This document shows, piece after piece, positions 1,966-24,462 of a DNA stretch of 64,000 nt. Numbering within the stretch: position 1 is the first letter of the stretch; each line of letters begins with the position of its first letter. The notes beneath the pieces are model-generated. The model searched no databases. It was not told where the DNA came from and saw only the letters and a program-made list of their open reading frames with translations. The DNA comes from Syntrophales bacterium (GTDB lineage: Bacteria; Desulfobacterota; Syntrophia; Syntrophales; UBA2210): the NCBI GenBank assembly GCA_963666365.2, contig CAXXNF010000002.1:864001-928000 (forward strand), written 5' to 3'. The translations under genes and the position numbers were made by a program.

Positions 1966-2040
1966 GAGTGAAATGAGAAGTGCACCTTAACATTGACAGA
2001 ACCGGGAACTCTCCAATAGAATTATTCGGATAGAGAGTTT

Positions 2041-3300: not shown

Positions 3301-3315
3301 GATATTGAGAAAAAC

Positions 3316-4260: not shown

Positions 4261-4333
4261 GCCGGTTTCGTTCCGGAATTTCAAGATATTCAGTTATCAT
4301 TTTTATGTCGTAGATGGACATGGTTGCAGACAA

Positions 4334-5560: not shown

Positions 5561-5561
5561 C

Positions 5562-6686: not shown

Positions 6687-6767
6687 ACCTTTACTGTTCC
6701 GGGAAGCACCGTATTATGCAAAGAAAAGCCGAATCGATGCTTGCAGGTACTGACACGGGAACAACCT

Positions 6768-7961: not shown

Positions 7962-7991
7962 ACGTGATTTATTCCCGGGATATCGACGTTT

Positions 7992-9119: not shown

Positions 9120-9324
9120 AAAAGTTATTCTTGGAATACCTTTTATACTATGCTAATGCTTATGCTACACTTTTTGAGAATTGAGTTTTTTTGAAATTGC
9201 TGTAGTTTTAGTCTTGTTGCACAATTATTTGAAATGTTATGTGAATTTACATAGATCTTTTCGGTGGATAATTCTTATCGAGTCTTCTCTTCAAGTAATC
9301 GTAACAAATAAGCATTGTTCGATC

Positions 9325-9615
9325 ATGAAACAAAAGCGTAGACACAAAAAAATAAAGAGATCGAAACATCCTTTAAAAAACGAATGGAAGCAATTTCTTT
9401 TTGTTTTCGTCATATGCCTTGTAGTTGGTATTGCGTTTGCGTTTCTTACCGGCAAGATGCCGTCATTCCTTGACAGAACCATTCAAAAATACACAGATCG
9501 AATAGCGGCTGAACAAATCAAAGGATTCGAAAAAAAAGTGTTAAAAGAGGTAACAGGCGATAATCTTGATGTTGTCAAAAAGTACAAAGATGCGAAGACT
9601 GCCATTGACAACTAA
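9325..9615 (+). CDS. Small single-pass membrane protein (hypothetical)
   Basis: Basic N-terminus (MKQKRRHKKIKRSK), one hydrophobic helix, charged C-terminus; stop overlaps the convergent gene by 4 nt. Confidence 0.5.
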   Translation: MKQKRRHKKIKRSKHPLKNEWKQFLFVFVICLVVGIAFAFLTGKMPSFLDRTIQKYTDRIAAEQIKGFEKKVLKEVTGDNLDVVKKYKDAKTAIDN

Positions 9616-11030
9616 TTGTTTATCTTATTATTTGTATCACAGGCCTTCATATGATGCACCTTCCGTTCATCTGTCGCTATCGAAGGAATCATTATAACAA
9701 CAGCAGTCAAAAACCAGAACGGTTCCATGATTCTGACGATAATGAATGTATTGGAGCCTACGGCATGAGCAAGCAAGGCTACAAATCCAGCCAAAAATCC
9801 CAGAGCAAGTCCATTAAAGAGGGGTTCCGTCGTGTTCCGGTATACGTGTAAGCCGCTTTTAAAAATGGTAATGAGCAGCCATACGAAAACAGACAAACCG
9901 ATCATTCCAGTCTCCACAATAACTCTTGGAAACTGCGCATCAAGGAATCTATATCCCGTAATACCATAGCCAAAAAGGGGGTGCCTGATAAAATCATTTG
10001 TGAGTACATTCTTCCATGATCTCAGTCTGTCCGATGTTGAGGTATCGATTCGTATTCCGGCAATTTCAATCTGTTCCTTATGATATCGCTGCGTGACAGT
10101 AAAAAGCACCCTCTCTTTTACCGCCTTAGGCAAAGAAAATGGAGCGAGTAAAATTACTGCAATCAGTATCGCAACTAATGCCAGTTTTTTCTTTGAAAAT
10201 AGTATAAGTGCGATCAGCATCGGAATGACCGCAATCCACGAGCTTCTTGAAAGGGTAGCCAACAGAGAAATCACAATTAGCACAGCAAGCACTGCAAGGC
10301 TTTTTTTGTAGCCTGTTGATTCCGATGTAGCCAGCAATCCCAAAACGATAGACAACATGAATACGAGATATCCACCCAGGGTGTTCGGCTCGCCCGTTCC
10401 CCCTTCAAACGGCGCGGTGACCCTCCCGCCCGCGGGGATTTGCGTAATCGCAACGAGACACACGATGCCGCATACGATCAGCATAACAGCGACGAATCGT
10501 TCGATCTGCTTTCGCTCTTTCAGGTGGTTCACCACCATAAAGTAGACGATGTAATATTCAAAATATTTAAGAACAAAGAAAAAACCCGTGGCAATTTTGA
10601 CCCGCCCCATCATGAAGCCAAGCATAGTTGAAATGAGGCAGATAGAGATATACGCAGCGATCGGGACATTCAGGGGCGTTTTCAGAAACAGGCCCAGCTC
10701 TTTGTTGATGGCGGTTTTGAAAAACCAGCCGAAGCCGATGACAACCAAAAGTACGTCGTCAAAACGTATGGTAATTCCGCGGCTTGCTGTCGCACTGCCT
10801 CCCGCCAGGCTGCCGATCATGAATTCCGGGCTGAGAAGCATCGAAACGATGAGAATGTAGAGTGCAACTTCCACGTTAAGGAAGCTGACCACAGCGACCC
10901 CTATTACGGCAGTAAGTAGAAGCGAGGCCGTAATCGATGCCTTTGCGATGATGAATCCGCAAAAGGCGGCTAACAGTATAATTGAGAGTATGGGAACGGC
11001 TGTCCTGATGGTGCTGGTATTTCCCCTCAT
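9612..11030 (-). CDS. O-antigen ligase / Wzy polymerase family protein
   Basis: Multi-TM; 'EPNTLGGYL', 'TLSRSSW', 'HPLFGYG' Wzy_C-like motifs; follows wzc with 4-nt overlap. Confidence 0.8.
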   Translation of the reverse strand: MRGNTSTIRTAVPILSIILLAAFCGFIIAKASITASLLLTAVIGVAVVSFLNVEVALYILIVSMLLSPEFMIGSLAGGSATASRGITIRFDDVLLVVIGFGWFFKTAINKELGLFLKTPLNVPIAAYISICLISTMLGFMMGRVKIATGFFFVLKYFEYYIVYFMVVNHLKERKQIERFVAVMLIVCGIVCLVAITQIPAGGRVTAPFEGGTGEPNTLGGYLVFMLSIVLGLLATSESTGYKKSLAVLAVLIVISLLATLSRSSWIAVIPMLIALILFSKKKLALVAILIAVILLAPFSLPKAVKERVLFTVTQRYHKEQIEIAGIRIDTSTSDRLRSWKNVLTNDFIRHPLFGYGITGYRFLDAQFPRVIVETGMIGLSVFVWLLITIFKSGLHVYRNTTEPLFNGLALGFLAGFVALLAHAVGSNTFIIVRIMEPFWFLTAVVIMIPSIATDERKVHHMKACDTNNKINN

Positions 11031-13813
11031 GGCACGTTATTTTTGTCGATAAAGGCACTTTCAGTAATTTGTAACACATGGCTTCCGGGATATTGCCGGT
11101 CCAATTTACCGTCGTGCAAGAAAGACAACGCCTTGTCCTTGTCACCATATGTGCCGATAAATACGGCATGCCAAAGGCCGCTGCTTTTACTGTTATAGAC
11201 ACTTACCCAGGCGTCAATACCCGTGGTCTTCAATGATCTGGCCAGGCGTTTCGCATTACCGGCCTCCCGAAACGAGCCGATACGGATGGTGTAGTATCCG
11301 TATTTTTTATGATCTTCACGCGTTGATTCGGTATTGCGCTCCGTCTCTATATTACTTTTTTGTTCTCCCCCTCTGTGTTCTTCCGCAATGACCGGATCTG
11401 GATCACCTTTCTTCACAGCAGCTGCAGGAAGGTCTATTTTTTTTCTCACGATCGGCTTCGCGTCAACGTCAGAAGATGCAGTCGAATTGCCGATGGCGCT
11501 GTCTTTCCACAGCGGAATCACCATTTCCGGAAGGTGTATCAGATCAAATCTGTACAGCGCGTGAGCGCCGAACAACAGCAGGATGAGGAAAAGAATCCAC
11601 ACTTTTACTGCAGGCAAGGCTATTTTTGAAATTTTTCGTTTGGGTGTGTTTTCGTCCTCGCCATAATATTTATAGTATTTGTAATAATCATAATCGGTGA
11701 AGTCAGGGCTTATTTCTGGATTGAGGCCATTAAGCACAACGCCGACGATGTGTGCCGTTGCCCTGTTGAGTTGCGCAACGGCCTGTTTGAGGGTGCCCCT
11801 TCCTACTTTTCCCACTCGATATACCATAGCGATGGCGTCTGAAATCGATCCCAGGATTGCGGCATCCGCGGCGGAAAGAACGGGCGGGGAATCAAGAATG
11901 ATAACGTCGTACTCTTTCTGTGCTTCATCAAGAATCGCCCGGAAGGTCCCTGTGCTCATAAGTTCGGCAGGATTGGGGGGCATGGTGCCGCATGTGATTA
12001 TATTTAAATGATCCAATCCCGGTGTTGTCATAATTTCATCAACAGTCATTTTTCCAACCATGAGATCCGAAACGGTGTTGACCGTATCTTTCCAAAAGTA
12101 ATTCCCCAGGATGACATCGGATAATCCAGGCACTTGATTTATCCCGAACATTTTGGCGATCATCGGTTTTCTCATATCCGCGTCGATAAGGAGCACGTTT
12201 TTCCCTGTTTGTGCGAGTGCAACAGCAAGATTGGCCACAATGAATGTCTTGCCCTCTTGCGGCGAAGAGCTTGTAAGGGTTAGTGTCCTGATATTTTTAC
12301 CGAGCCCGGAGAAACTGAGATTTGTGCGGAGTGTTCTGTAATTTTCCGCAAGCAGCGATTTCGGCGCGTAATGGGAAATAAGCCGCGAATATCTTTGAGC
12401 GGTTTCAGTGTCAATTTCCTCTGAACCGTCTCTTGCTATGGATGCCTTAATTTCGTTGACATCCACGTGCGGGATAAGTCCGATCACCTGGGTGCCGGTA
12501 TATTCTTCTATTTCGGCGATATCGCCAATGGAGGTATCGAAGGTTTCAATCACGAAGGCAAGCAGGGTACCCACGATAAGTCCAATAAGAATGCCGGCAA
12601 ACCCTATTGCCGCCGTTTTAGGAGGATTTATCGGGCGCCCCGGTGCAAGGGCAGGTTTCACAATTTGTATTTCCTCTATCTTCTCGGCTTCTTTAATGAG
12701 AATTTCCTGGTACTTGGTCTCAAGAAGCATGTATAATTCTTTATTTATCCGCACATCCTCTTCCAGTCGACCCAGCGCAAGGCTTCTTTCAGGAAGTGTC
12801 TTTATTTTCGAATCTATTTCATCGATCCTCTTTTGCAGCGCTGCGATATGGGCCTCGAGGATTTTATGCTGATGCTGCAGTTCCGACTCCATGCGGGCGG
12901 TAATTTCTTGTATTGCCTTGTTTATTTCTATTACCCGGGGATACTCCTCGGTATAGGTAATAAGAAGCGTATCTCGCTCCATCATTAATTTTATCAGCTG
13001 ATCGTTAAGCCCTTTATAGAGAGGTGATGCATCGGGGATAAAGTAGCTCGTCTTGGCCGCAAGAGCGGTTTTTCCCGATTTATTGAGTATTGTGGCGGTG
13101 TTTTCTATTGTCTGTAATGCCTCTGTTGTCTTTTTATAGGTATCCTGCAACGACGCATATTGATTCAGAAACTGCGAAGTCTGGGAAGCAACCGCCAAAA
13201 GCTGGTGTTCCTCCCTGAATTTTCTCACGGTATCTTCCGCAATTCTCAGCTTTTCTTTCACTACCTGCAGTTGACCTTCAATAAAGGCCTTTGCATCGGA
13301 AGTCCGTTTGTTCAAGTCAATAAAATGATGTTCTTTATGGACACGTGCGATTGTATTGGCAAGATCGCGCGCAAAGGCGGGATCAGCCGACGTCACCGAG
13401 ATGTTCAGAATGTTGCTGTATCCCTCCTGTTCGGTTTCGATACTGTCACGTATATTGAGTACTATCTTTTGATATTTCAAATTCCTATGTATCTCTTCCG
13501 ATGAAACGTCTGCAGGAATGAGTCCCAGCTCTTTTGCCGCCAATTCAACGATATGATAGCTTTTAATGATTGTTGCCTGGGTTCCCATGTAATCCGTTGG
13601 AGACCATGAAACCGCCTGAACATAAAGGCCTGTAACGGAGCTGGTTTTTTCGATCTTGATGCTTGCAGTGGCCTGGTAGAGCGGCACAGGCTGCCACAGC
13701 ATTGAAAAGAGGACGCTGAAGAAGGCGGTGCATACCACGGCGGCGATAATAATGTATTTCCTCTTCCTGACAACCCTCCAGTAATCACGAAGATTCAGAT
13801 CGTATTGCGCCAT
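11027..13813 (-). CDS. wzc: Polysaccharide co-polymerase / BY-kinase (Wzc family) with extra C-terminal TM and SPOR domain
   Basis: Wzz-like N-terminus 'LRDYWRVVRKRK', coiled coil, Walker A 'SSSPQEGKT', 'LLIDADMRKP', 'IILDSPP', Tyr cluster 'DYDYYKYYKYY', SPOR-like 'YTIRIGSF..WHAVFIG'. Confidence 0.88.
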   Translation of the reverse strand: MAQYDLNLRDYWRVVRKRKYIIIAAVVCTAFFSVLFSMLWQPVPLYQATASIKIEKTSSVTGLYVQAVSWSPTDYMGTQATIIKSYHIVELAAKELGLIPADVSSEEIHRNLKYQKIVLNIRDSIETEQEGYSNILNISVTSADPAFARDLANTIARVHKEHHFIDLNKRTSDAKAFIEGQLQVVKEKLRIAEDTVRKFREEHQLLAVASQTSQFLNQYASLQDTYKKTTEALQTIENTATILNKSGKTALAAKTSYFIPDASPLYKGLNDQLIKLMMERDTLLITYTEEYPRVIEINKAIQEITARMESELQHQHKILEAHIAALQKRIDEIDSKIKTLPERSLALGRLEEDVRINKELYMLLETKYQEILIKEAEKIEEIQIVKPALAPGRPINPPKTAAIGFAGILIGLIVGTLLAFVIETFDTSIGDIAEIEEYTGTQVIGLIPHVDVNEIKASIARDGSEEIDTETAQRYSRLISHYAPKSLLAENYRTLRTNLSFSGLGKNIRTLTLTSSSPQEGKTFIVANLAVALAQTGKNVLLIDADMRKPMIAKMFGINQVPGLSDVILGNYFWKDTVNTVSDLMVGKMTVDEIMTTPGLDHLNIITCGTMPPNPAELMSTGTFRAILDEAQKEYDVIILDSPPVLSAADAAILGSISDAIAMVYRVGKVGRGTLKQAVAQLNRATAHIVGVVLNGLNPEISPDFTDYDYYKYYKYYGEDENTPKRKISKIALPAVKVWILFLILLLFGAHALYRFDLIHLPEMVIPLWKDSAIGNSTASSDVDAKPIVRKKIDLPAAAVKKGDPDPVIAEEHRGGEQKSNIETERNTESTREDHKKYGYYTIRIGSFREAGNAKRLARSLKTTGIDAWVSVYNSKSSGLWHAVFIGTYGDKDKALSFLHDGKLDRQYPGSHVLQITESAFIDKNNVP

Positions 13814-13834
13814 TCAACGGAATCCTTTTCCCTG

Positions 13835-15022
13835 TCAATCCACCCTTTTAAAGCGAAGATGATCGCTGTTGAAGTAAGAATCTCTATAACTGCCCGGATA
13901 CAGAAAGTAATCAAGAAGCGGCACCGTATTGGTGATGAACTCATTGATGTCGCCTATGACGGTCCTGGGCACGTACACCACATCGCCATTCAGAAGCGCA
14001 ATGTTTTGTGAAATATCGCCCTGTTTGAGCACCTCGTCAAGGTTTGCGGAAATAACCAGGGGTTTCCTGTCATTTGCCACATATCCCCGAATGACCTTTA
14101 TGTCGGTATCTACGGCTATCCTGGTTGTACCGCCCGCCAACGACACTGCGGCAAGAAGATCATGGGCGTCCTTGAGCCGGTAGATTCCCTGCGATGCAAC
14201 TTCGCCGAACACGTAGACGCGCTCTCCGTAGACCGGCAATTCGGGAACGGTGACGATGTCTCCGCTATCGACAACAATATTTTGACTTGTGTCCCCTTTC
14301 ACCATCACGTCGAGCAGGTTCACGGTGTATTTCCTGCCTTTTCTTACGACCTCCACATGACGTAAATCAGCGTTCGCGTATTCCTGGCCCGATATAGCGC
14401 CACCGGCCATTGTAATCAAATCTATTAAGGTGGTCTTACCTTTCAAATAATACGTGCCCGGTCCCGACGCCCTGTAATCCGCGCTGTTTATCTGGCCCAG
14501 AAGAAGCGCACTTTTGCTTTTATAATCTTTTATCATCACTTCGATTCTAGGTGTTTTTATGTATTTTTTTAACGCATTCGTCAGGAGATCATCGACCTCT
14601 CCTGCGGTACGACCGTCAACCATGACATCATCGATAAAAGAGTAGGAGATTTTGCCATCCGGCCGCACCACCGTTTCGTATTCCTGAACCTGGTTCCCTT
14701 CCATGCTTCGAATGAGAAGTACATCGTCGGCGCCGATTTTATATTCCGGAATTCCTCTCTTTTCGGTAAATACACTGTTTTCAGTAGCCGAACTCATCTC
14801 GGCAATCTGTTGTTTTTCGACTGCCCTCTTCTCATTGGATTGCCTGTCCTGATTTTGTACATTACTGACATATTCCCGTGCAGGTATGCCCCGTGCTTCA
14901 AAACTGCAGGCGTATACCGATAAGATGAATATTCCCATGCACATACCAATCATGACACTGCGCACGCGCAGGTATAATTTGACTTTATTTTCTGTGATCA
15001 TTCGGCTCTGTTTCATTTCCAT
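13835..15022 (-). CDS. wza: Polysaccharide export outer-membrane lipoprotein (Wza family)
   Basis: Lipobox-like 'LSVYAC', poly_export 'EYKIGADDVL..VRPDGKIS', SLBB repeats 'VYVFGEV..PG/QG.Y'; true start may lie slightly downstream. Confidence 0.85.
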   Translation of the reverse strand: MEMKQSRMITENKVKLYLRVRSVMIGMCMGIFILSVYACSFEARGIPAREYVSNVQNQDRQSNEKRAVEKQQIAEMSSATENSVFTEKRGIPEYKIGADDVLLIRSMEGNQVQEYETVVRPDGKISYSFIDDVMVDGRTAGEVDDLLTNALKKYIKTPRIEVMIKDYKSKSALLLGQINSADYRASGPGTYYLKGKTTLIDLITMAGGAISGQEYANADLRHVEVVRKGRKYTVNLLDVMVKGDTSQNIVVDSGDIVTVPELPVYGERVYVFGEVASQGIYRLKDAHDLLAAVSLAGGTTRIAVDTDIKVIRGYVANDRKPLVISANLDEVLKQGDISQNIALLNGDVVYVPRTVIGDINEFITNTVPLLDYFLYPGSYRDSYFNSDHLRFKRVD

Positions 15023-15037
15023 GCAACTGATTCATTT

Positions 15038-15120
15038 TCTCCCACAGAGACGACGAGATGCAGAGAAAAACATTTTTTCATTTTTTGCTGTCCTCAGCGC
15101 CGCTCCGTCTCTGGGCGAAA
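15038..15120. repeat. Imperfect inverted repeat (REP-like) just upstream of wza
   Basis: Arms CAGAGACG ... CGTCTCTG pair perfectly, with weaker flanking complementarity around an A/T-rich centre. Confidence 0.4.
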
Positions 15121-15624
15121 GTATGTTCTTTTTTCTGTACTCTGCCCAAGAAATTGTGAGTTATTACACGCTTTTTAATCTTGCTCGCAATTTCAAGCTC
15201 TTACAGCATTTTTTCCATTCTGTCAATGCAAGGCTATTCAAATATTGAGTGATTATAACCCATTGTAACTGCATCAACAAGGGATATAATCCTTCCCTCA
15301 ATTACATTAGGCATATTATAAAAGCAGCACATCCTGGCAAATACCATATTCCGTCCAGAAGAAATACAAATTATTCTTGTCAATCCTTGTGTAAATGTGT
15401 AGTATCGCGACCTAACTTTGCATTCGATATTGTACGCAGCGGTTTAGTTGCTCTGTGGTCGTTCTTTGCTATGAGACCTGAAATCCGCTCACACACAGAC
15501 CTGTAATGACCCGCTCGCCCACTGCGGTCAAAAAAATAATTTGCATTGTAATCCTTTCGGAGTGAAACTATTGTGCAGCGGTTGCCCTAAAAAAGGATAT
15601 GCATGTTGAGGAATTTCGGATTCC

Positions 15625-16512
15625 ATGCTCAAATTATATTCTGAGATACTACAATATCTTGCCGAATTCAGATCTTACGCACTCGATGATAAAGTGCTTG
15701 ATATTAGGCCCGCGATAGAATTTGTCACATTCTTGACAGGAAACCATGAGCACATCGAGCAGTATTATATATCGACACTACAATCTAATCCCAATGAAGA
15801 CTTTTTTCTCTCTCATCAGGCCAATGCGCTTGCCTATGCTCTCAAGATAGGTCGAGGCTTGAAATACGCTCCTGAAAAACTCCATGAACTCGGTTTGGCA
15901 GCACTGCATTATGATGTAGGGCTCCTTAAAATACCTGATTCAATAAAATATAAGGAAGGTGAACTAAGCGATCTGGAATTAAAAACGATACAGACACATG
16001 CCGAAATAGGCAGCATTATCTTGTCCGCCTATCAAGAACAGTATCCCTTTCTCTCACGGGCTGCGCTCGAGCATCATGAACGGGAAATGGGTCAAGGCTA
16101 TCCTTCAGGATTAAAGGGGAATGAAATCAGTGAATATTCCAAAATAATCGGAGTGGTGGATATATACGAGGCCATGATTCATAAAAGACCCTATAGAAAA
16201 GCCTACCTTCAGCATGATTCAATCAAACGGATCCTTAATTCAAAGGGACAACTCTTTCCCCCGTACATAATAAAGGCGCACCTCGAAGAGACAGGACTGT
16301 ACCCGCTTGGAAGTTATGTAAAACTGAACAATGGAGTAATCGGCCGGGTTTGCGCCGTCAACAAGTCGCACCCATTGAAGCCGGTTGTTATATTGTTGTT
16401 TGACAGCAATGGCCGCAAAATGGCAGGGGATAGTAAAATCAATCTTGGAGAACATCCTATCCTCTATATCACAGAAGCGATTGACATGGAAAATCTGCCC
16501 TATGATCGGTAA
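15625..16512 (+). CDS. HD-GYP domain protein (HD motif degenerate)
   Basis: 'ALHYDVG' at the HD position, 'HHEREMGQGYP', 'DIYEAM..RPYRKA', C-terminal 'YPLGSYVKLNNG'. Confidence 0.85.
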   Translation: MLKLYSEILQYLAEFRSYALDDKVLDIRPAIEFVTFLTGNHEHIEQYYISTLQSNPNEDFFLSHQANALAYALKIGRGLKYAPEKLHELGLAALHYDVGLLKIPDSIKYKEGELSDLELKTIQTHAEIGSIILSAYQEQYPFLSRAALEHHEREMGQGYPSGLKGNEISEYSKIIGVVDIYEAMIHKRPYRKAYLQHDSIKRILNSKGQLFPPYIIKAHLEETGLYPLGSYVKLNNGVIGRVCAVNKSHPLKPVVILLFDSNGRKMAGDSKINLGEHPILYITEAIDMENLPYDR

Positions 16513-16546
16513 AAAATGCAGGGCGGGGATAATGAATATATTGATG

Positions 16547-16575
16547 TTGACATATGGGTGTTGTGGGGCTAGTTT
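16547..16575 (+). promoter_or_regulatory. sigma70-like promoter of the RiPP-like operon
   Basis: TTGACA-N17-TAGTTT, about 58 nt upstream of the PqqD ATG. Confidence 0.55.
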
Positions 16576-16632
16576 AGTTTTAAATTCTTTTTACCTGTGG
16601 TGTATGATCACCGGAGAAGAACTGGAATTTCT

Positions 16633-16890
16633 ATGAAAGATGATCCCATCATGGCAGAAGTCGACGGTGAAGGCATGATTATCGATGTCGACCGCGGGAC
16701 CTGTTATTTCCTGAATGAAACCGCGCTGCTTATTTACAAGATGGTAAAAGACGGCAAAGGCAGCCGCGAGATCAGGGATGTGCTGACACGGGACTATGAT
16801 GTCGACGAAGGAGACGCTGAGAGCGACATAACTGCTTTTTTGAAGCAGTTACAAAGCAAGGCTGCAGCATGGGAAAAAAGAGATACGTAA
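16633..16890 (+). CDS. PqqD family / RiPP recognition element (RRE) chaperone
   Basis: 85 aa; 'EVDGEGMIID....YFLNETALLIY....G....I...L...YDV....AESDI..FL..L' is the typical stand-alone RRE pattern. Confidence 0.9.
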   Translation: MKDDPIMAEVDGEGMIIDVDRGTCYFLNETALLIYKMVKDGKGSREIRDVLTRDYDVDEGDAESDITAFLKQLQSKAAAWEKRDT

Positions 16891-17129
16891 AACCGGAAAT
16901 CAGGGAGGAATCCCAGATTCTTACCGTAAGGGCATGGGTCACCGCAACGGCCCAGGTGTTGACGCAGCCGACGACTGAAACGAGCGTTTCCCTGCAGAAT
17001 GTCGCAGAATCGGTATCATCGACCAGTCAGGCATTACAGGAGAGGGTGACGAAAACCAGTGTTGCACAGCAGACCGTCATCACGAGAACCGGTGTCGCCC
17101 TGCAGAGAGTCCTTTCCCGGCAAAGATGA
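16869..17129 (+). CDS. Putative RiPP precursor peptide (86 aa)
   Basis: Leader 'KKRYVKPEI' matches the RRE-binding Y/WxxPxL/I motif; lies between the RRE and the radical SAM genes; repetitive Thr/Ser/Val/Gln core. Confidence 0.8.
   Translation: MGKKRYVKPEIREESQILTVRAWVTATAQVLTQPTTETSVSLQNVAESVSSTSQALQERVTKTSVAQQTVITRTGVALQRVLSRQR
16941..17114 (+). repeat. Five degenerate 33-bp (11-aa) repeats inside the precursor
   Basis: TATAQVLTQPT / TETSVSLQNVA / (ESV) / SSTSQALQERV / TKTSVAQQTVI / TRTGVALQRVL; DNA e.g. acgaaaaccagtgttgcacagcag vs acgagaaccggtgtcgccctgcag. Confidence 0.7.
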
Positions 17130-17170
17130 TACCCAGGCAATGACACCCGCCTATTGAGCCATAGCTGTCA

Positions 17171-18133
17171 ATGTTACAAACCATAGCCATAGACATAACA
17201 AACTACTGCAATTTCGATTGCATCCACTGCATCAGGGATAAAATTTCACCACGGGCCCATATGGATGCGACATTGCTGAGAGATATTCTTGAACAGATTA
17301 CCTCCGTCGGCATCGGGGAAGCGTGCCTTACCGGCGGAGAACCTGCTCTTCATCCAGAACTCGGTCCCATCGTTAAGAGCTTTTGCGACTACGGCGTGCA
17401 TTTCAGCCTGGTCAGCAACGGATTTCTCTTTGAGGAGTCGATCCTTCCTCTCTTTGACAGGAACGTTCAAAACTACCTGACGGGCGTCAGTTTCAGTCTC
17501 GACGGCGCGACGGCGGCGACTCATGATATGTTGAGGCGCAAGGGAAGTTTCGAACGAGTCATCAGCTCTATCAAGGCATGCACACTAAAAGGGATTTCCG
17601 TATCCGTCAAGAGTATCGTTCATAGAGAAAATATGCACGAAATCGTCGATGTCGCCGTGTTATGCGCCTCCCTTGGCGTTGAAAGTCTCGGATATGTGCT
17701 TCTCACGCCTACGCCGCGGATCATCCAACAGTGCCTTATGCCGAGCGCCGAAGAGTATGAAGCGGTTACCAGACGCATTACCGGAAGGATTGCCCCTTCC
17801 TTCGCAATGATCATTAATATGGAAGGGTACGCCGATCCTGATTTTCGCGTCCCCTTCTGTAATCCCGCCCAGGGGCTTTCGGTAGACCACGAAGGAAACC
17901 TAATATTTTGCTGCAATCTCTCTCACCCAACCGCAGGTGATAGGCCTGATACGTTCGGAGAAGAATATCTCGGCAACATCAGTGACATTGGGATTGAGGA
18001 AGGAATACTGAGGCACTACAGGAAGTTTGCCTGGTTTATGAGCAAAGTGATGAACTCGGGCCCGGCCGGACTTGAAGAAAGAAACTGCTCGGCCTGTTTT
18101 CGCCTCTTCGGCAAGCAGGATTGGATGAAATGA
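17171..18133 (+). CDS. Radical SAM protein with C-terminal Twitch/SPASM-like Cys motifs (1)
   Basis: CxxxCxxC 'CNFDCIHC', 'LTGGEP', 'FSLDG', C-terminal 'FCN..DHEGNLIFCC..CSAC'. Confidence 0.92.
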   Translation: MLQTIAIDITNYCNFDCIHCIRDKISPRAHMDATLLRDILEQITSVGIGEACLTGGEPALHPELGPIVKSFCDYGVHFSLVSNGFLFEESILPLFDRNVQNYLTGVSFSLDGATAATHDMLRRKGSFERVISSIKACTLKGISVSVKSIVHRENMHEIVDVAVLCASLGVESLGYVLLTPTPRIIQQCLMPSAEEYEAVTRRITGRIAPSFAMIINMEGYADPDFRVPFCNPAQGLSVDHEGNLIFCCNLSHPTAGDRPDTFGEEYLGNISDIGIEEGILRHYRKFAWFMSKVMNSGPAGLEERNCSACFRLFGKQDWMK

Positions 18134-19143
18134 AAGCCCCGACGATCGATATCGTTAATTTCTGCAACTTCTCATGCCGGCACTGCCTTGTAGAAAAATC
18201 GGCGCCACCCCTCTTTATGGACAGGCATCTCTTCTCCCATCTCATGGATCAGATAGGACGTCTCGGTTTCAGATATGCCGGCATCACAGGGTCTGGAGAG
18301 GTGTCGCTGCACCCCCAGATAGAAGATATCCTGTTCAGCCTTGCAGAACACAATATCGGGTTTGAAATGCTTACCAACGGATTCTTGTTTAAGGAGCGCC
18401 TGCTTCCGTTGCTTAAAGATCCGATGATCAGGAAACGAGTCTGTTTGATCGGGTTCAGCCTTGACAGCGCACGGGAGGAGGTGCACGACAACAACAGAAA
18501 GGAAGGCAGTTTCAGGAGAATCATCGAGGCGATCGGATTGTGCCGACTGCTCGGAATACCTTTTTATATCAAGACTGCGGTGACAAACATCAACAAACAC
18601 GAGCTGAGAGACATTCTTCTTTTTACCTCCGGTCTGGGCGCCTTTTCACAGTCATTCCTTTTTCTTCAGCCGACGAGGCGATTGTTGACAGAACAACTCA
18701 GTCCCGACCCCCATGAGTTGTATCGCCTGTTCACGGAACTCAGCTCCTGGCGCCGGATATATCCCAGATTAAAACTGGAGGCTTTCAATACATCGAATGA
18801 TCTCTTCTCTTGCAACGCCTTTTTCAAATGCGGCGTCGATGAAGTGGGAAACTATCTTATCTGCAACAATCTCAGCAATGTGGGAACTTCAGAAGAAACC
18901 TACAAAGGCCCGGAATGTATCGGGAACATAGCAAACGAGTGTCTGGAAGACCTGATAGTGCGGCATCTCAACCTCCTGCCGGAAATTCTCAAGTGGCGGT
19001 TTGACCGTAAGGACATGATTAAGAATGCACCCCTCTCACTGTGCAACTGGTGTTTTTACCAGTTTAACAAACTGGACTGGTTAAAAAATGATTTTCCCGA
19101 CTCACCATGGACACGATGCTTAACCTCAACATTTACGGATTGA
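18130..19143 (+). CDS. Radical SAM protein with C-terminal Twitch/SPASM-like Cys motifs (2), paralog of the upstream gene
   Basis: 'CNFSCRHC', 'TGSGE', 'FSLDS', 'SCN..DEVGNYLIC..CNWC'; ATGA overlap with the upstream stop. Confidence 0.92.
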   Translation: MKAPTIDIVNFCNFSCRHCLVEKSAPPLFMDRHLFSHLMDQIGRLGFRYAGITGSGEVSLHPQIEDILFSLAEHNIGFEMLTNGFLFKERLLPLLKDPMIRKRVCLIGFSLDSAREEVHDNNRKEGSFRRIIEAIGLCRLLGIPFYIKTAVTNINKHELRDILLFTSGLGAFSQSFLFLQPTRRLLTEQLSPDPHELYRLFTELSSWRRIYPRLKLEAFNTSNDLFSCNAFFKCGVDEVGNYLICNNLSNVGTSEETYKGPECIGNIANECLEDLIVRHLNLLPEILKWRFDRKDMIKNAPLSLCNWCFYQFNKLDWLKNDFPDSPWTRCLTSTFTD

Positions 19144-19808
19144 AGGTTCAATTACACTTTGCGTCCTGGAGTGACGAAACCAAGGCAGCCGATCTATTCG
19201 CGCTCTTTTTGAACGACGATCACGACGAGGCGGACGTTTCTTTCGAGTTTGGGAAAAATGTGGCGAGACAGGAAATAGCCCGTCATCTTTTTCCTTTTCT
19301 TGCTGAAAGGGAGATATGGGCAATCCATTCAGGGGGGTTTCATTACCATGGCGGGCATCTGACGGTAGGACCTTCCAACTGCGGGAAATCGACCTTCAGC
19401 TACATGGCCGCAAAAAACGACCTCTTTCTCTTGAGCGATGATATTACCCTGATGAAGGATACCGCATCCGGTGTGGAAGTTCTCCCCTTTTACTCGGCAC
19501 TCTATCTGAAACATAAGGTGATTTTACCGGATTCTAGTATTTTCAAGCCCACCCTGCTCAAATACCTCCTGCTGCCGCGATTCAGCAAAGGCGCGTTTTG
19601 CATCAGAAAAATTGAGCAACGCAGCGACCTGCTGCGCCAATTAGTACCCCAATTCCTCTGGTCATACAACAAAAGAGAGCAGGAAAAACAAAAGAGATTT
19701 TTAGAATTACTATGCAATTATCCGGCATTTGAAGTATATTGGAACGAAACGATGTTTGACGATCATCGGTTATTGAGGGACGTACTTGATGCAATTGTTC
19801 AAAATTGA
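19107..19808 (+). CDS. HPr kinase-related P-loop kinase
   Basis: 'IHSGG', Walker A 'GPSNCGKST', 'LLSDD' motif of the HPrK-like family. Confidence 0.75.
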   Translation: MDTMLNLNIYGLKVQLHFASWSDETKAADLFALFLNDDHDEADVSFEFGKNVARQEIARHLFPFLAEREIWAIHSGGFHYHGGHLTVGPSNCGKSTFSYMAAKNDLFLLSDDITLMKDTASGVEVLPFYSALYLKHKVILPDSSIFKPTLLKYLLLPRFSKGAFCIRKIEQRSDLLRQLVPQFLWSYNKREQEKQKRFLELLCNYPAFEVYWNETMFDDHRLLRDVLDAIVQN

Positions 19809-20196
19809 AGGAAACTCCATGTATCCTCTGCTCAAACACAATGACATGGTCATCGTCGCTCCCCTGTCGGCCGAGCGGCTGAAAACAGGAAACATTGTCG
19901 TATTTAAGAAAGATGCACCCGAATATATTGTTCACCGCCTAGTAAAACGAACAGGAGGCGGCAAGATGCTCTTCCGGGGAGACGGCTATAATCTGCCCTT
20001 GGAATTGATAGGGACAAATGCCGTTGTGGGAAAAGTGACTGGAAGGATCAGGGCGGGGGAATTGATACGTGTCAGCCGCTCCAAGGAATGCGGCTCATGG
20101 GCCATTGCCATGATTAAGGAACGGGTTAAGCGTCTTCTGATGAAGGGCCAACGGGTGGTGCAAGAGGACAGCACATCCGTTTCCGATTATTTGTAA
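19789..20196 (+). CDS. S24/S26 signal-peptidase-like protease, no TM anchor
   Basis: 'GNSMYPLL' catalytic Ser, 'GNIVVF', 'IVHRL' (His-type general base as in SipW/SEC11), 'RGDG'; GAGG SD. Confidence 0.85.
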   Translation: MQLFKIEGNSMYPLLKHNDMVIVAPLSAERLKTGNIVVFKKDAPEYIVHRLVKRTGGGKMLFRGDGYNLPLELIGTNAVVGKVTGRIRAGELIRVSRSKECGSWAIAMIKERVKRLLMKGQRVVQEDSTSVSDYL

Positions 20197-20225
20197 CCTC
20201 GCGCCCGGCGAAATGGAAATGCAAG

Positions 20226-20702
20226 ATGGAAAGACGATCGTTCATCAAGACAATACTTGTGGTTACGGCTCTCCTGCAGGGACTGCCGGCAAGGTTGGTG
20301 TGTTTCGGTGGGAACCGCGCCCTTGCCTCAAACAACCACGACTCGCACGAGACCGATTTTACAGGTTCATATTTTACGGGAACGATTGACCACAGGATCT
20401 TAATACCTGAAGAACTGCGTAGTCCATTAAAAAAAACAGGATTTTATGTTGTCGGCCTGAAAGCCCATGGTGTGCTTCTTGTTTCTGCACAGAGTCCGCT
20501 TATGGAACTCTTCGACGAAATAAAGGATTCCACGCTGTTCCGGGAAGACTTTTTACTGCTCCGAGAGGATAATCTCTTCATAGGCAATGACGGCTATCTG
20601 GTCATTCCTCCGGAAATGCGAAATTTTGCCGGCATCAAAACAGGAAAAGTCTCCATAATCGGACGGCGGAACCTGATCGAAATAATAAATTACGGCGAAT
20701 AG
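20226..20702 (+). CDS. MraZ/AbrB-like protein with twin-arginine-like signal peptide
   Basis: 'MERRSFIK' + hydrophobic stretch + 'ALA-S'; two MraZ-like halves 'FTGSY..TIDHRILIPEELR' and 'DGYLVIPPEMRNFAGI...VSIIGRRNLIEI'. Confidence 0.65.
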   Translation: MERRSFIKTILVVTALLQGLPARLVCFGGNRALASNNHDSHETDFTGSYFTGTIDHRILIPEELRSPLKKTGFYVVGLKAHGVLLVSAQSPLMELFDEIKDSTLFREDFLLLREDNLFIGNDGYLVIPPEMRNFAGIKTGKVSIIGRRNLIEIINYGE

Positions 20703-20823
20703 AAAAGAATTCGAGCATGCAAATGCCGGATCACAACCCGTCAATCCGTTGAAATACCTCCGTTCATCGGCAATAATCGGCGGGCTCTGTTCAACGGACC
20801 CATGATGATGAGACATTGCGTCA

Positions 20824-21996
20824 ATGAAGATGAGACATGAAAAGGAACGGGATGTAGTGCGCACCCTCGCACGACAGTCATTGAGCCAAGACGACGCACT
20901 CAGACTTAAAGAATCCCTGGACGATGCAATTCAATGGCCCTTCATCCTGCGTAGCGCAATTGATCAGGGGATTGCTCCGCTTTTGTTTCATCATTTCAAT
21001 AATCTTGCGCTTATGGAGACACTGCCGGCCTATGTACGGCAAGTATTTTCAAGGCTTTACGGCGAAACGATGCTTCTGAACAGGCACATAACGGCGGTGC
21101 TGTCTGAGTTGGAGAAGGCATGTGAAGGAAGCGAGATTCGGGTAATCGTTTTTAAAGGTGCGGCGCTGCTTTCCACCGTGTACCGAGATATCGCCCTGCG
21201 GCCCATGGAAGACATCGATCTCATGGTCCGACCGAAACAAAAGGATACCGTACAAGCAATCCTTAGTAAACGGGGGTTTGTTCGCGACCCGCTCTATCCT
21301 ATGACCTTCAGACGAGGCGTTATTACTGTGGATGTGCACGATGATTTCCTCTCCACCCACAGGATCCGGAGCCGCCGAAAAATAATGAATGTGCACATGG
21401 ACGATGTCTGGGCGAGATCGATTCCCCTCAATGAAAACCTGCGCCACATTTTCCGTCTTTCTCAGTACGATAACCTTTTAGCCCTTTCATTCCATATTTT
21501 GAAACATCGATTTTCCCGACTGATCTGGTTCGCGGATATCAGGGAATCAGTCAATGCCGGCGATACAATTTTCGGCTGGACCGGATTCCTCGATTACGTC
21601 GATGACGTGGGGGCGCACAAGATCGTGCTTTACGCGTTACTGCTGGCGAAACATCTTGTGACGATGGATGTGCCGGATTATGTGCTGCAGCGCCTTGGAA
21701 AGGATGCTCTCTCGACCCTTGAACACACCATCCTGCGACTTAGATTGGCAGACGCCGATCCGAGGACTGTAATAGATTTGTTATGGATATTTCAAATACC
21801 GGGGGGGGTGAGACGGTTGCAATTTATTTTTGAAAACATATTTCCCAGACAAGAAGTCATGAACCAGATATTCCCTGGCTCATCTCTTCCGGTACACACG
21901 TTTTTGAGGCGGGCAATCATCACCGGATCACGGGTATTCATTGATGGGGCTTCAGCATTCAAATTTGTTGCGAAGGGCGGGCTTCCTCCCCTGTGA
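20824..21996 (+). CDS. Nucleotidyltransferase family protein (NTP_transf_5-like)
   Basis: 'FKGAALLSTVY....LRPMEDIDLMV', 'VDVH', 'RLIWFADI'. Confidence 0.85.
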   Translation: MKMRHEKERDVVRTLARQSLSQDDALRLKESLDDAIQWPFILRSAIDQGIAPLLFHHFNNLALMETLPAYVRQVFSRLYGETMLLNRHITAVLSELEKACEGSEIRVIVFKGAALLSTVYRDIALRPMEDIDLMVRPKQKDTVQAILSKRGFVRDPLYPMTFRRGVITVDVHDDFLSTHRIRSRRKIMNVHMDDVWARSIPLNENLRHIFRLSQYDNLLALSFHILKHRFSRLIWFADIRESVNAGDTIFGWTGFLDYVDDVGAHKIVLYALLLAKHLVTMDVPDYVLQRLGKDALSTLEHTILRLRLADADPRTVIDLLWIFQIPGGVRRLQFIFENIFPRQEVMNQIFPGSSLPVHTFLRRAIITGSRVFIDGASAFKFVAKGGLPPL

Positions 21997-22079
21997 CGAC
22001 CGGGAATATGCATCCTTTCCGCACACTGACGGCACTCATTGTTTTTTAACGCCGCTGCTCTACAAAAGGAGATTTTCAC

Positions 22080-23003
22080 ATGAACGAAACCTGCCGACTT
22101 GTTACGCGAAGCGATTTTGACGGGCTTGTGTGCGCCGTCCTTTTGAATGAACTGCACCTTATCGACGACATTGTCTTTGCCGAACCGGGCGATTTGCAGC
22201 AGGGACTCATACCGCTGACCGATCGAGACATTACCTGCGATCTTCCCTTCATGCCCGAAGTTCACCTCGCCTTCGACCATCACGCAAGCGAACTCACACG
22301 GGTCGGACAATGTATCGACAATCACGTCATAATTGCTCAGGCGCCATCCACCGCCCGCGTCGTCTACGATTACTACGGCGGGGCAAAGGCATTCCCTCAC
22401 ATATCCGAATACTTGATGAAGGCTGTCGATAGAATAGATTCGGCCCGTTTAAGCCGCGAAGAGATTCTTCATCCCGCAGGCTATATATTGTTGGGATTCT
22501 TAAGCGATCCACGCACCGGTCTTGATTTATTTGAAGGTTTCGCGCTCTCCCATACCGCATTTCTCATGAAACTGATCGATACGATCGGTCGCCGGGAAAT
22601 CCATGAAATTCTCGAAATTCCCATGGTCAAGGAACGGGCTTCGCTTTATTACGAGCATGCAAAGCCTTTTAACCATCTGATAAAACGTTGTGCCTCCGTT
22701 CACGGGAATGTAGTTGTTTTCGACCCTCGCGGTGAAACCGGCCTCTATATAGGCAACCGATTTGTCATCTATGCACTGTATCCCGATTGTAACGTCAGCA
22801 TCACCCTCACCCAGCGGCATGACGGATTTACATCTCTCTCAGTGGGAAAATCGATTCTTGACCGCAGCTCGTCGGCGAAGATAGGCGACATACTTCTTGC
22901 CTTTAACGGGGGCGGCCACGACAATGCGGGATCCTGTCGCGTCGAAAACAACCTCGTCGATACGGTGCTTCGGGAACTCATCTCCATTTTCAAGGCGGCC
23001 TGA
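22080..23003 (+). CDS. DHH/DHHA1 phosphoesterase (NrnA / exopolyphosphatase-like)
   Basis: 'SDFDG', 'FDHH', 'GGGH..AG'; AGGAG SD. Confidence 0.85.
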   Translation: MNETCRLVTRSDFDGLVCAVLLNELHLIDDIVFAEPGDLQQGLIPLTDRDITCDLPFMPEVHLAFDHHASELTRVGQCIDNHVIIAQAPSTARVVYDYYGGAKAFPHISEYLMKAVDRIDSARLSREEILHPAGYILLGFLSDPRTGLDLFEGFALSHTAFLMKLIDTIGRREIHEILEIPMVKERASLYYEHAKPFNHLIKRCASVHGNVVVFDPRGETGLYIGNRFVIYALYPDCNVSITLTQRHDGFTSLSVGKSILDRSSSAKIGDILLAFNGGGHDNAGSCRVENNLVDTVLRELISIFKAA

Positions 23004-23019
23004 AGAACTAAGCCGCACT

Positions 23020-24462
23020 TCATGAAGTCTTTCCCCGCACTCTGCCATAGTACACCAGCGCCCACATGGCGCGGGCGCATTGCTCCGGTGCATCGTAAAT
23101 GGGAATGCCGCCTTCATTGAGTATCCGCTCCATAATGTCGTGTTCCAGCCTGGTAAAACGTAAGCACACAATGGGTTTGCCGTATTTTTTGGGCAATGAG
23201 GCATACACTCCGGCACCTTCGACTGCCACTTTTGCATGGTGCGGCATCTCTTCGGAATGTATGTCTATTTTAAGAGATCGATCCCAGATTTGCGGGCTCA
23301 CGGGCACATTACTGATCACGCCATCGATGTAATCAAGCGAAAGTAGTCGTTCGATAATCCCCGCCTCTTCGAGTGCCGTCCGCGCACTTCCGGCAAAATC
23401 TATAGGATTTCGCGCCGGCGGTGCATGGGCGGGAAGAAGACTCGTTATCGTATGCGAAATTTCAGGATCCAGTTCGGGGAGCTCAAGGCCCAGGGCGGAA
23501 CAGGCATCGGTTCCCACCACTCCCTGACCGCCGCTTCCCAGAATTGCGACCCTGTTGCCCGACGGAAGGGGAAGCGTCGCCAAGGCTTCGGCTACTTCAA
23601 ACAGATGAAAGGCCTCTTGTACTCTTATAATCCCCGCCTGCCGGCACATGCTGTCGAAAATCGCTTCGGAACCGGCAATCGATGCCGTATGTGACATGGT
23701 GGCACGGGCGCCCGCTTTCGATCGTCCTGCCTTGTAGAGTACAATCGGCTTTATTTTCACCGCCTCCTTTGCCACCTCAAAAAACCGGCGACCGTCCTTC
23801 AACCCCTCAAGATACAGAATGATCACCTTTGTTTCATCATCGCCAGCCAGGTATTCGATGTAGTCCGCCGCTTCAAGATCTGCCTGATTGCCGATACTGA
23901 TAAATTTGCTGAGTCCGTAACCCTTTTGATTGGCCACATTGGCCAAAGCGACACCAAAGGTACCGCTTTGAGACACAAAGGCCATGGGTCCCGATTTAGG
24001 CGCCTGTGGAAAACACAAGCTCAGGTGACCGGCGGCACTCCATATCCCCATGCAGTTGGGGCCCACCAGCCGTATGCCGCTTTCTCGCGCGACATCGATC
24101 ATCTCTTTTTCAAGTTTTCTCCCCTCTTCACCCACTTCGGCAAATCCAGCCGTGATAACCACCGCCCCTTTTATCCCCTTTTGCGCGCATTCACGCAAAA
24201 GACCGGGCACTAACGCCGTGGGTGTGGTCATAACGGCGAGATCGATATTCCCCGGCACATCGGTGACACTGGGATAGGCTTTGAGTCCCAATATTTCCCG
24301 CTTGTGCCTGTTGATCGGATAAATGACGCCCTTGAAGCCCGTGTGAAGGGGCCGTTCCACCATGAGATATCCCCATTTTCTGAAGGTGTCCGAAGCGCCG
24401 ACTACCGCGATGGATCTGGGTTCGAATATATAGTCAAGTTCCTTCATTTCGTCCGCCTGCAC
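23020..24462 (-). CDS. NDP-forming acyl-CoA synthetase, alpha subunit (CoA-binding)
   Basis: 'FEPRSIAVVGAS', 'GPNCMG', 'VSQSG', 'SIGNQAD', phospho-His 'SHTAS', 'NPIDF'. Confidence 0.88.
   Translation of the reverse strand: MQADEMKELDYIFEPRSIAVVGASDTFRKWGYLMVERPLHTGFKGVIYPINRHKREILGLKAYPSVTDVPGNIDLAVMTTPTALVPGLLRECAQKGIKGAVVITAGFAEVGEEGRKLEKEMIDVARESGIRLVGPNCMGIWSAAGHLSLCFPQAPKSGPMAFVSQSGTFGVALANVANQKGYGLSKFISIGNQADLEAADYIEYLAGDDETKVIILYLEGLKDGRRFFEVAKEAVKIKPIVLYKAGRSKAGARATMSHTASIAGSEAIFDSMCRQAGIIRVQEAFHLFEVAEALATLPLPSGNRVAILGSGGQGVVGTDACSALGLELPELDPEISHTITSLLPAHAPPARNPIDFAGSARTALEEAGIIERLLSLDYIDGVISNVPVSPQIWDRSLKIDIHSEEMPHHAKVAVEGAGVYASLPKKYGKPIVCLRFTRLEHDIMERILNEGGIPIYDAPEQCARAMWALVYYGRVRGKTS

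Follow-up and report, generated by a model that had tools for sequence, protein, structure and literature searches.

Gene content and layout of the cassette

A stretch of 64,000 nucleotides from a Syntrophales bacterium (assembly GCA_963666365.2, contig CAXXNF010000002.1, positions 864,001 to 928,000), hereafter the window, was analysed with regard to a candidate biosynthetic gene cluster for a peptide that is ribosomally synthesised and modified post-translationally (RiPP), and all positions below refer to that window. Within the region 16547–21996, a total of eight same-strand (+), mostly overlapping open reading frames (ORFs) were found at 16597–21996, encoding a PqqD-family RiPP recognition element (RRE), a precursor peptide, two radical S-adenosylmethionine enzymes (rSAM1 and rSAM2), a kinase-like protein, a signal-peptidase-like protein, an MraZ-like protein and a PF14907 protein (Table 1). 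The gene overlaps listed by the initial annotation of this region were all present, namely 22 nt between the PqqD and precursor genes (16869–16890), the ATGA shared by rSAM1 and rSAM2 (18130–18133), 37 nt between rSAM2 and the kinase-like gene, and 23 nt between the latter and the peptidase gene. As the orthologous PqqD proteins were 85–92 aa long, the ATG at 16634 is favoured over the GTG at 16597 as the start of the PqqD gene. The G+C content of the cassette (0.476–0.492 in 2-kb segments, 16001–22000) was unremarkable compared to the rest of the window, and thus gave no compositional sign of recent transfer. On the other hand, the promoter proposed by the initial annotation upstream of the PqqD gene was found as a sequence, and its promoter function is putative, since the proposed −10 element agreed with TATAAT in just 3 of its 6 positions, a consensus promoter scan did not pick up the site, and that scan yielded 13 promoter-like sites at 15000–23500, close to the expectation from shuffled sequences (10.4 ± 3.2).

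Table 1. Positions of the cassette genes and of the features next to them within the window
Feature	Position	Strand	Remarks
Promoter-like TTGACA-N17-TAGTTT	16547–16575	+	TTGACA 16547–16552, TAGTTT 16570–16575; read directly; 5′ of PqqD gene; function putative
PqqD-family RRE	16634–16890	+	85 aa from ATG 16634; GTG 16597 would give 97 aa
Precursor peptide	16869–17129	+	86 aa
rSAM1	17171–18133	+	320 aa; PF04055
rSAM2	18130–19143	+	337 aa from ATG 18130; alternative TTG 18121 possible; PF04055
P-loop protein, predicted HprK/PEPCK kinase fold	19107–19808	+	233 aa; fold-based
Soluble signal-peptidase-I-like (S26) serine peptidase	19786–20196	+	Candidate leader peptidase; sigpep_I_arch, Peptidase_S24/S26
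Tat-signal MraZ-fold protein	20226–20702	+	R-R-x-F motif, fold search
PF14907 (NTP_transf_5) nucleotidyltransferase-family protein	20824–21996	+	PF14907, 151 bits
Wza-like export protein	13835–15022	−	End of exopolysaccharide locus nearest to the cassette
HD_5 (HD-GYP-type) gene	15625–16512	+	Between exopolysaccharide locus and cassette

A Cys-free repeat precursor under a near-invariant leader

The precursor comprised a leader of 22 residues (KKRYVKPEI...LTVRA), a conserved junction (W23-V24-T25) and a core with four 11-residue units, and it was devoid of Cys. A HMMER search of 1.84 billion representatives retrieved 15 matches, 14 of which had the common leader, the 15th (3174 aa) aligning to the low-complexity core only. 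Together with the precursors of the orthologous loci described below, a set of 34 distinct sequences was obtained, across which the leader consensus KKY-x-x-P-x-I...LTV-x-A was near-invariant. In particular, counting back from the conserved Ala, the residues Y−17, P−14, L−5, T−4 and A−1 were invariant, and both V−3 and I−12 appeared in 33 of the 34 precursors. Moreover, the three residues after this Ala were W-V-T in 27 of them, Thr +3 being present in all 34. No NCBIfam model matched the peptide, and Pfam gave only a chance-level match to DUF5398 (E 0.09).

Under this leader, the cores varied in length and sequence, with a high content of Thr (18%), Ala, Val, Ser and Gln. The core unit had the form [VI]-T-x-T-S-[VY]-A-L-Q-x-x, with up to four units per core and commonly three or four. 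A unit model built from 30 regex-chosen 11-mers, which were seeded from the same 34 cores that it later scored, found 88 units in these cores compared to 0–6 in 20 shuffles; they appeared at the fixed core registers 14, 27, 38 and 49, giving a period of 11. Among the 88 units, the most constrained positions were position 2 (T/S in 86, 98%), position 5 (S/N in 84) and position 4 (T/S in 81, 92%), followed by position 6 (V/Y in 73), position 9 (Q in 65, 74%), position 1 (V/I/L in 60), position 8 (L in 55) and position 7 (A in 54). Thus, the Cys-free repeat precursor that the initial annotation had described was recovered as a family, Cys being found in none of the 34 members. An amphipathic helix was also considered for the repeat and set aside, the hydrophobic positions 1, 6, 8 and 11 not lying on one helical face. 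Three precursors (P0060 and those of loci L084 and L091) were 188–209 aa long, with the usual leader and repeats followed by a long, basic Pro/Thr-rich tail.

In the own genome (4.0 Mb, two contigs), the precursor and the PF14907 gene each occurred once, as did a clear PqqD; a further, marginal match to the PqqD domain (23 bits) was seen inside a 728-aa frame elsewhere (G000:C1:15093–15284, − strand).

Conservation of the gene order

For rSAM1, 41 full-length orthologue cluster representatives were found with 49–98% identity, and all those that were named belonged to Deltaproteobacteria, Thermodesulfobacteriota or Syntrophales metagenome-assembled genomes (MAGs). A total of 15 orthologous loci were compared, five from species genomes (L001–L005, 50–76% identity) and ten from metagenomes (L081–L088, L090 and L091, 59–68%). 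A homologous precursor lay directly 5′ of rSAM1 in all 15 of them, so that the short YxxP ORF, on whose presence beside related rSAM pairs the initial annotation had made its proposal depend, was kept throughout. Furthermore, the full order PqqD–precursor–rSAM1–rSAM2–kinase–S26–MraZ–PF14907 was found in seven other loci (L001, L002, L003, L081, L085, L086 and L087), and five more (L005, L082, L083, L090 and L091) were cut by contig ends and agreed with it as far as they reached. The same gene order on unrelated contigs is more than would be expected by chance.

Just the precursor, the rSAM pair and the S26 peptidase were shared by all orthologous loci reaching that far, and the gene set around them varied. 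L088 had no MraZ-like gene and carried a second PqqD (4934–5230) before PF14907, and L001 had a second PqqD and a Methyltransf_28-like gene at the same place (11620–13270). An extra third rSAM and a methyltransferase were found in L087 (12469–14498), and in L004, from a 'Spirochaetia' MAG, the peptidase was followed by a methyltransferase and an ATP-binding cassette (ABC) exporter (3510–6156) replacing the MraZ-like and PF14907 genes. The smallest set was that of L084 (1381–4393), with precursor, rSAM1, rSAM2 and S26, whereas no gene for PqqD, the kinase, the MraZ-like protein or PF14907 lay within reach.

Among 301 genomes of the same order, an rSAM2 orthologue was found in 10, and in none of the 37 other genomes of its own family, a patchy spread which is typical of accessory clusters. 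More distant relatives were also seen. In L089 (368–946), whose rSAM is 40% identical, a 192-aa frame combined a PqqD domain with a precursor-like KKPYQKP leader and a Cys-free tail rich in Ala and Arg, and only one rSAM gene came after it. A larger set of single-rSAM relatives at about 30% identity (L006–L080 and L092–L160) came from Pyrinomonadaceae, Polyangiaceae, Nitrospira, Brocadia and Longimicrobium, usually in the arrangement PF14907 ... HprK-like–rSAM–PqqD, and a regex for YxxP precursors in these sister loci returned scattered unverified candidates only (L027, L029, L038, L043 and L058).

A pair of radical SAM enzymes with a shortened C-terminal domain

Both enzymes matched PF04055 (82.6 bits for rSAM1 and 70 bits for rSAM2) and were paralogues of each other (33% identity, E 1e−57), with an invariant Cx3Cx2C motif (C15, C19 and C22 in rSAM2). 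Neither of them had a match to the SPASM model of Pfam (PF13186, E ≤ 0.01). The invariant Cys residues of the C-terminal part were C230, C247, C248, C306 and C309 in rSAM1, and C231, C248, C308 and C311 in rSAM2, where C266 was present in at least 90% of sequences. They formed a CX9-15GX4C (CX11GX4C) pattern plus a CX2C pair, that is, four to five Cys compared to the seven of a SPASM domain. The C-terminal domain is therefore probably a shortened SPASM or twitch-like domain, with enough Cys for one auxiliary cluster and one to spare.

When the rSAM profiles were searched against the PDB, SkfB was the best match, and BlsE, PqqE, MoaA and YydG were matched as well (E 2e−11 for the last with rSAM1), all of them over the common rSAM core only, so that the chemistry is not fixed by these matches. 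Thioether formation, in turn, is excluded as judged from the precursor sequences, since none of them holds a Cys; likewise, the core Cys residues serving as thioether donors in sactipeptides and ranthipeptides are absent. Sulfur-free rSAM products are described in the accessible part of PMC8326336, namely the ether from Thr-O to Gln-Cα of the TQQ system, and the epimerisation of Val and Ile by EpeE/YydG, an enzyme with two clusters and an enzyme Cys as hydrogen donor. The present pair resembles these small rSAMs in having a probable auxiliary cluster and a Cys-free motif, and its units contain conserved Thr/Ser, Val/Tyr and Gln; however, no orthology was found, the motif, repeat organisation and accessory genes are different, and the best PDB match is SkfB. 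By analogy, L-to-D epimerisation of Val/Ile/Tyr-type positions, as by YydG/EpeE, is put forward tentatively, and Thr/Ser-O–C or C–C cross-links, as in the TQQ ether, just as tentatively, no choice between them being possible because the units offer Thr/Ser, Val/Ile/Tyr and Gln alike. Some other reaction is only slightly less likely than either of these.

The RRE, the kinase-like protein, the peptidase and the PF14907 protein

The PqqD protein matched PF05402 with 49 bits, and its best NCBIfam matches were the lasso PqqD models (44.5 and 38.9 bits, under the cut-offs of 70 and 80). Its gene was located directly 5′ of the precursor gene in every orthologous locus reaching that far, except L084. 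The peptidase had sigpep_I_arch as its best match, marginally under the cut-off (51.3 vs. 51.85 bits), together with Peptidase_S24 and S26 of Pfam. Across 11 orthologues, S11 was nearly invariant, and H50-R51 and G65-D66 were invariant, with 39 residues between Ser11 and His50. The catalytic G-N-S-M box stands right at the start of the protein, which thus lacks an N-terminal membrane anchor. The PF14907 protein (151 bits) was the sole copy in the genome.

For the kinase-like protein, family models gave chance-level matches to unrelated models only (E 0.06–0.18). In contrast, ten orthologues shared an invariant G-x-S-x-x-G-K-S-T P-loop followed by D-D-I, and the profile of the family reached the HprK structures 3tqf (E 0.01) and 1ko7 (E 0.44) in the PDB. 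An AlphaFold2 model from the orthologue alignment had a mean predicted local distance difference test (pLDDT) score of 88.6, and its best Foldseek matches were ATP-dependent phosphoenolpyruvate (PEP) carboxykinase (1ayl, 1.4e−6) and HprK/P (1ko7_A, 1.5e−6), with a template modelling (TM) score of about 0.5 normalised to the HprK C-terminal domains. Moreover, the kinase-like ORFs next to the rSAM relatives with 30% identity matched HprK_rel_A (30–53 bits), hpr-ser and ScmC, all under the cut-offs, and the protein of the window matched these ORFs at E values of 1e−4 to 1e−7 in a small database. Thus, the HPrK-like kinase of the initial annotation holds as far as the predicted fold and the P-loop and DD motifs are concerned, by which the identity as an HprK-fold P-loop kinase is supported, and not as regards membership in a named HprK-related family, which is not supported.

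A cassette-specific MraZ-fold protein and the exopolysaccharide neighbourhood

The protein annotated as Tat-MraZ, that is, MraZ-like with a twin-arginine translocation (Tat) signal, had matches at family level to MraZ only at E 0.02–0.16 (Pfam E 0.02) and to TAT_signal at E 0.18. Its two elements were recovered in other ways: an N-terminal R3-R4-x-F6 (M-x-R-R-x-F) was invariant in 8 of 8 orthologues, and all 16 PDB matches of the predicted structure with E ≤ 1e−3 in Foldseek were MraZ. The model had a pLDDT of 68.8, with residues 1–41 as disordered or signal sequence and the remainder at 70–85. TatC was encoded in the genome (254.8 bits). A profile search of the 301 genomes gave full-length strong matches, signal included (E ≤ 1e−49), in 8 genomes, all of them among the 10 with an rSAM2 orthologue, and in the six of them besides the own genome for which coordinates were compared (G058, G072, G082, G087, G174 and G198), the match and rSAM2 shared a contig and were separated by no more than about 2 kb. 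A further 96 genomes had weak matches only, restricted to profile positions of about 37–160, which we interpret as the housekeeping MraZ, lacking a signal. As the strong, signal-bearing matches occurred only in genomes with the rSAM pair, the Tat-MraZ paralogue is specific to the cassette. A complex prediction of its residues 40–158 with the precursor scored 0.02 and gave no answer either way.

Upstream of the cassette (62–15022), an exopolysaccharide (EPS) locus was found with a MOP flippase, a methyltransferase, one family 2 and four family 4 glycosyltransferases (GT2 and GT4), an O-antigen-ligase-like membrane protein and a 928-aa Wzc-like chain-length/tyrosine autokinase. The HD_5 gene between the two could belong to either the EPS locus or the cassette; close orthologues of it were found beside the cassette, upstream in L003 and L081, and downstream on the opposite strand in L086. 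L003, L081, L086 and L088 were flanked by HD_5 and/or EPS-type genes (Poly_export, low-molecular-weight (LMW) phosphotyrosine phosphatase, AAA_22 and Glycos_transf_4), so that, besides the window, 4 of the 10 other loci with scanned flanks had EPS-type neighbours, i.e. about half of those examined. On the other side, 84 nt 3′ of the PF14907 gene, a 307-aa ORF (22080–23003, + strand) showed a faint DHHA1/NrnA-like C-terminal match (E 0.06–0.14) and no homologue in the related loci.

Maturation in the cytoplasm is common among Tat substrates, and the cassette-specific, Tat-targeted MraZ-like protein and the adjacent EPS locus might therefore suggest that the short ORF is not the substrate at all, the rSAM pair either maturing the exported MraZ-fold protein or acting on a polysaccharide precursor of the EPS locus. 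This is very unlikely, since L004, L084 and L088 have no MraZ-like gene, but the precursor is found next to the rSAM pair in every case; in addition, the leader bears an RRE-binding motif beside an RRE gene, and L001 and L002 have no EPS neighbours.

Comparison with known systems

No gene of the cassette reached the NCBIfam cut-offs of the SynChlorMet, GeoRSP, HPr-rel-A or lasso models, and by score it thus belongs to none of these curated systems. For the rSAMs, with a cut-off of 400 bits in each case, the scores of rSAM1 and rSAM2 were 84.4 and 58.4 with ScmF (TIGR04251), 72.5 and 49.9 with ScmE (TIGR04250), and 67.8 and 48.2 with GeoRSP_rSAM, the GeoRSP system being represented by TIGR04302 and TIGR04303. 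The PqqD protein scored 20.4 bits with ScmD (TIGR04248) and 21.1 bits with geo_PqqD_fam (cut-off 100 for both), and 24.5 bits with PqqD_rel_X of HPr-rel-A (cut-off 35). The kinase-like protein of the window had no match to ScmC (TIGR04249, cut-off 125 bits) at E ≤ 10, nor to HprK_rel_A (cut-off 200 bits). In a full-text literature search, no paper was found naming SynChlorMet, GeoRSP, HPr-rel-A, HprK-related kinase, TIGR04249 or TIGR04352, or joining HPr kinase, radical SAM, PqqD and precursor peptide.

The initial annotation had allowed for a divergent SynChlorMet-like cassette, and the arrangement, with one PqqD-like and one HprK-like protein beside two rSAMs, is indeed that of the database-defined SynChlorMet and GeoRSP systems; moreover, ScmF was the best NCBIfam match of rSAM1 and the second best of rSAM2, and the kinase-like ORFs of the 30%-identity sister loci weakly matched ScmC and HprK_rel_A. 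However, the scores were 4- to 8-fold under the cut-offs, ScmC did not match the kinase-like protein, the rSAMs had the shortened C-terminal domain with only four or five Cys and no SPASM match, the Cys-free repeat precursor matched no NCBIfam model, and the S26, Tat-MraZ and PF14907 genes are additional here. It is thus quite unlikely that the cassette is a divergent SynChlorMet or GeoRSP system making the same kind of product.

With regard to lasso peptides, no macrolactam synthetase or B2 peptidase was found, all the ORFs of the cassette being otherwise assigned, and in the whole genome no Transglut_core3 match exceeded the cut-off (best 21.5 vs. 26 bits), in agreement with the lack of lasso machinery seen initially. 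Tailored lasso peptides (paeninodin with PadeK, pseudomycoidin with PsmK and PsmN), according to the accessible text of PMC9266682, share with the cassette a PqqD-type RRE, an HprK-like kinase and a PF14907-type enzyme, the last of which decorates phospho-Ser in the lasso case. In contrast, the candidate phosphorylation site here is near the core N-terminus, and the C-termini are not conserved.

The closest set of tailoring genes was that of the linear polyphosphorylated peptides (LPPs), whose clusters (lppA-K-B-S-D-N) were described from Paenibacillus alginolyticus DSM5050 (Popov et al., Nat Commun 2026, PMC13381572); what follows refers to the accessible text and supplements of that article. 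The LPP core comprises the RRE LppB, the HprK-like kinase LppK, the peptidase LppS (S29, H68 and D93), which resembles signal peptidase I (SpI) of the archaeal type, the PF14907 protein LppN and an MsbA-like pump, with lppN and pbaN listed as PF14907 in supplement file 1. The leader motif is YxxPxVLxHQxIxFETxxS, LppS cleaves after T−1 only with LppB present, LppK adds up to four phosphates to core Ser3 and does not phosphorylate an S3T variant, and no activity was seen for LppN. The clusters were reported only from Bacillota, within capsular polysaccharide loci. Judged by sequence and predicted fold, four genes of the cassette correspond to this core: a discrete RRE beside a YxxP-leader precursor (PF05402 and the invariant Y−17 and P−14), a candidate HprK-like kinase, for which the predicted fold and the P-loop/DD motifs agree with HprK/PEPCK and no kinase family matches, an archaeal-type SpI-like Ser/His/Asp peptidase with the same Ser–His spacing (S11/H50 vs. 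S29/H68), and the PF14907 enzyme. The start of the leader (YxxPx[VI]), a hydroxyl residue at core position 3 and the polysaccharide-locus setting are common to both as well. The differences are the two rSAMs and the Tat-signal MraZ-fold protein, the lack of an MsbA-type exporter in the window (among the loci, only L004 has an ABC exporter after the peptidase), a leader that matches the LPP consensus only in YxxPx[IV] and has one more residue from Tyr to the junction, Thr instead of Ser at +3, a core made of 11-residue repeats, and hosts that are Thermodesulfobacteriota-type MAGs instead of Bacillota. The words 'radical', 'rSAM', 'SPASM' and 'Tat' do not occur in the accessible text of PMC13381572, and 'Radical_SAM' appears once in its supplements, as a column label of a total domain matrix.

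The presence of four of the six LPP core functions, together with the leader start, the invariant +3 hydroxyl residue and the common EPS-locus context, would also agree with an LPP-type system in which the (poly)phosphorylation at +3 defines the class and the two rSAMs are secondary tailoring enzymes. This reading is rather improbable: the rSAM pair, the S26 peptidase and the precursor are the constant genes, the kinase, RRE and PF14907 genes being absent from L084; rSAM and SPASM have no place in the accessible LPP text, the MsbA-type exporter is absent here, and LPPs were reported as restricted to Bacillota (PMC13381572).

Interpretation of the cassette

Taken together, the locus is regarded as a real, conserved biosynthetic gene cluster for a RiPP of an uncharacterised family, patchily distributed in Thermodesulfobacteriota-type MAGs and forming an rSAM branch of the LPP/SynChlorMet-type systems, with a probability of about 70%. 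A RiPP-type cassette, as read initially from the RRE, YxxP leader, repeat precursor, two rSAMs, kinase-like protein, S26-type peptidase, Tat-MraZ protein and PF14907 enzyme, is supported by the family matches, the predicted folds and the conserved order, the latter holding in full in the seven loci and in part in those cut by contig ends, with L004, L084 and L088 as gene-set variants. The hallmarks of RiPP clusters are the RRE gene overlapping the precursor gene, the near-invariant leader with a variable core and the joint frame of PqqD domain and precursor-like tail in L089. In its composition, the cassette resembles a tailoring module of the LPP/paeninodin type combined with an rSAM pair like that of SynChlorMet, and by their membership criteria it belongs to none of these systems. 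Hence, the claim of a new, unrecognised class is upheld in so far as no curated cut-off was reached, and has to be narrowed in that half of the genes (RRE, kinase, SpI-like peptidase and PF14907) correspond to the experimentally studied LPP core. New in the cassette are the Cys-free substrate family with 11-residue repeats, the shortened-SPASM rSAM pair dedicated to it and the cassette-specific Tat-MraZ.

Several observations weigh against this interpretation. The kinase-like protein matched no kinase or HprK family in Pfam or NCBIfam, even at E ≤ 10, and at the level of sequence it is only weakly tied to HprK (E 0.01). The gene set of L084 indicates that the RRE and kinase genes are not always adjacent, and the rSAM chemistry is not constrained beyond not being thioether formation. 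Four of the 34 cores, all divergent, had no unit at 3 bits or more, and the unit model was itself seeded from the scored cores. As the spacing from Tyr to the junction is one residue longer than in LPPs, the cleavage site is not fixed and could lie after T19, R21 or A22. No EPS-type neighbours were found beside L001, L002, L004, L085 and L087, and L084 had only an asparagine-synthase-like neighbour; moreover, no transporter, and thus no cassette exporter, was present between 15625 and 23003. Furthermore, LppK did not act on a Thr replacing Ser3 (accessible text of PMC13381572), but it is a Thr that is invariant here.

As to the way in which a RiPP would be made by this cluster, we infer the chemistry, the phosphorylation site, the cleavage site and the export route as follows. 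The PqqD protein would first bind the Y6-x-x-P9-x-I11 leader and present the peptide to rSAM1 and rSAM2, each with one rSAM cluster and probably one auxiliary cluster, which would abstract hydrogen from backbone or side-chain carbons unit by unit and install a sulfur-free modification in each 11-residue unit. Phosphorylation, nucleotidylation or glycosylation of the peptide might be expected by analogy, and the HprK-fold kinase might then (poly)phosphorylate Thr25 (+3), in parallel to LppK on Ser3, with the PF14907 enzyme adding a further group to the Thr25 phosphate. If cleavage follows V-x-A, which fits the −3/−1 rule of signal peptidases, Thr +3 would be the sole hydroxyl residue that is invariant in the core region. 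Subsequently, the soluble SpI-like peptidase, aided by the RRE, may cut off the leader near V20-R21-A22|W23. The MraZ-fold protein with the Tat signal would be an accessory of the cassette, possibly as an export carrier or a periplasmic binder of the finished peptide, and the cell envelope or the exopolysaccharide matrix may be where the product has its function. That all these elements apply together, in a new RiPP class with one ether, C–C staple or D-residue per unit from a twitch-type rSAM pair, LPP-like Thr-(poly)phosphorylation and decoration, a signal-peptidase-like cut and folded export on Tat-MraZ into the EPS matrix, seems unlikely.

The cassette links three things that had been separate until now, namely the LPP/paeninodin tailoring module, the never-characterised rSAM pairs of the SynChlorMet type and Tat export. 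Since the core is free of Cys, the rSAMs must perform reactions other than thioether formation, and they would do so on a substrate that is simple, repetitive and easy to synthesise, which makes the system a tractable entry to new rSAM reactions. Moreover, a Tat-signal MraZ-fold protein limited to the cassette represents an unusual reuse of a DNA-binding fold. Finally, its recurrent position beside EPS loci, as for the LPPs in Bacilli, hints at a common role in the cell envelope or matrix.

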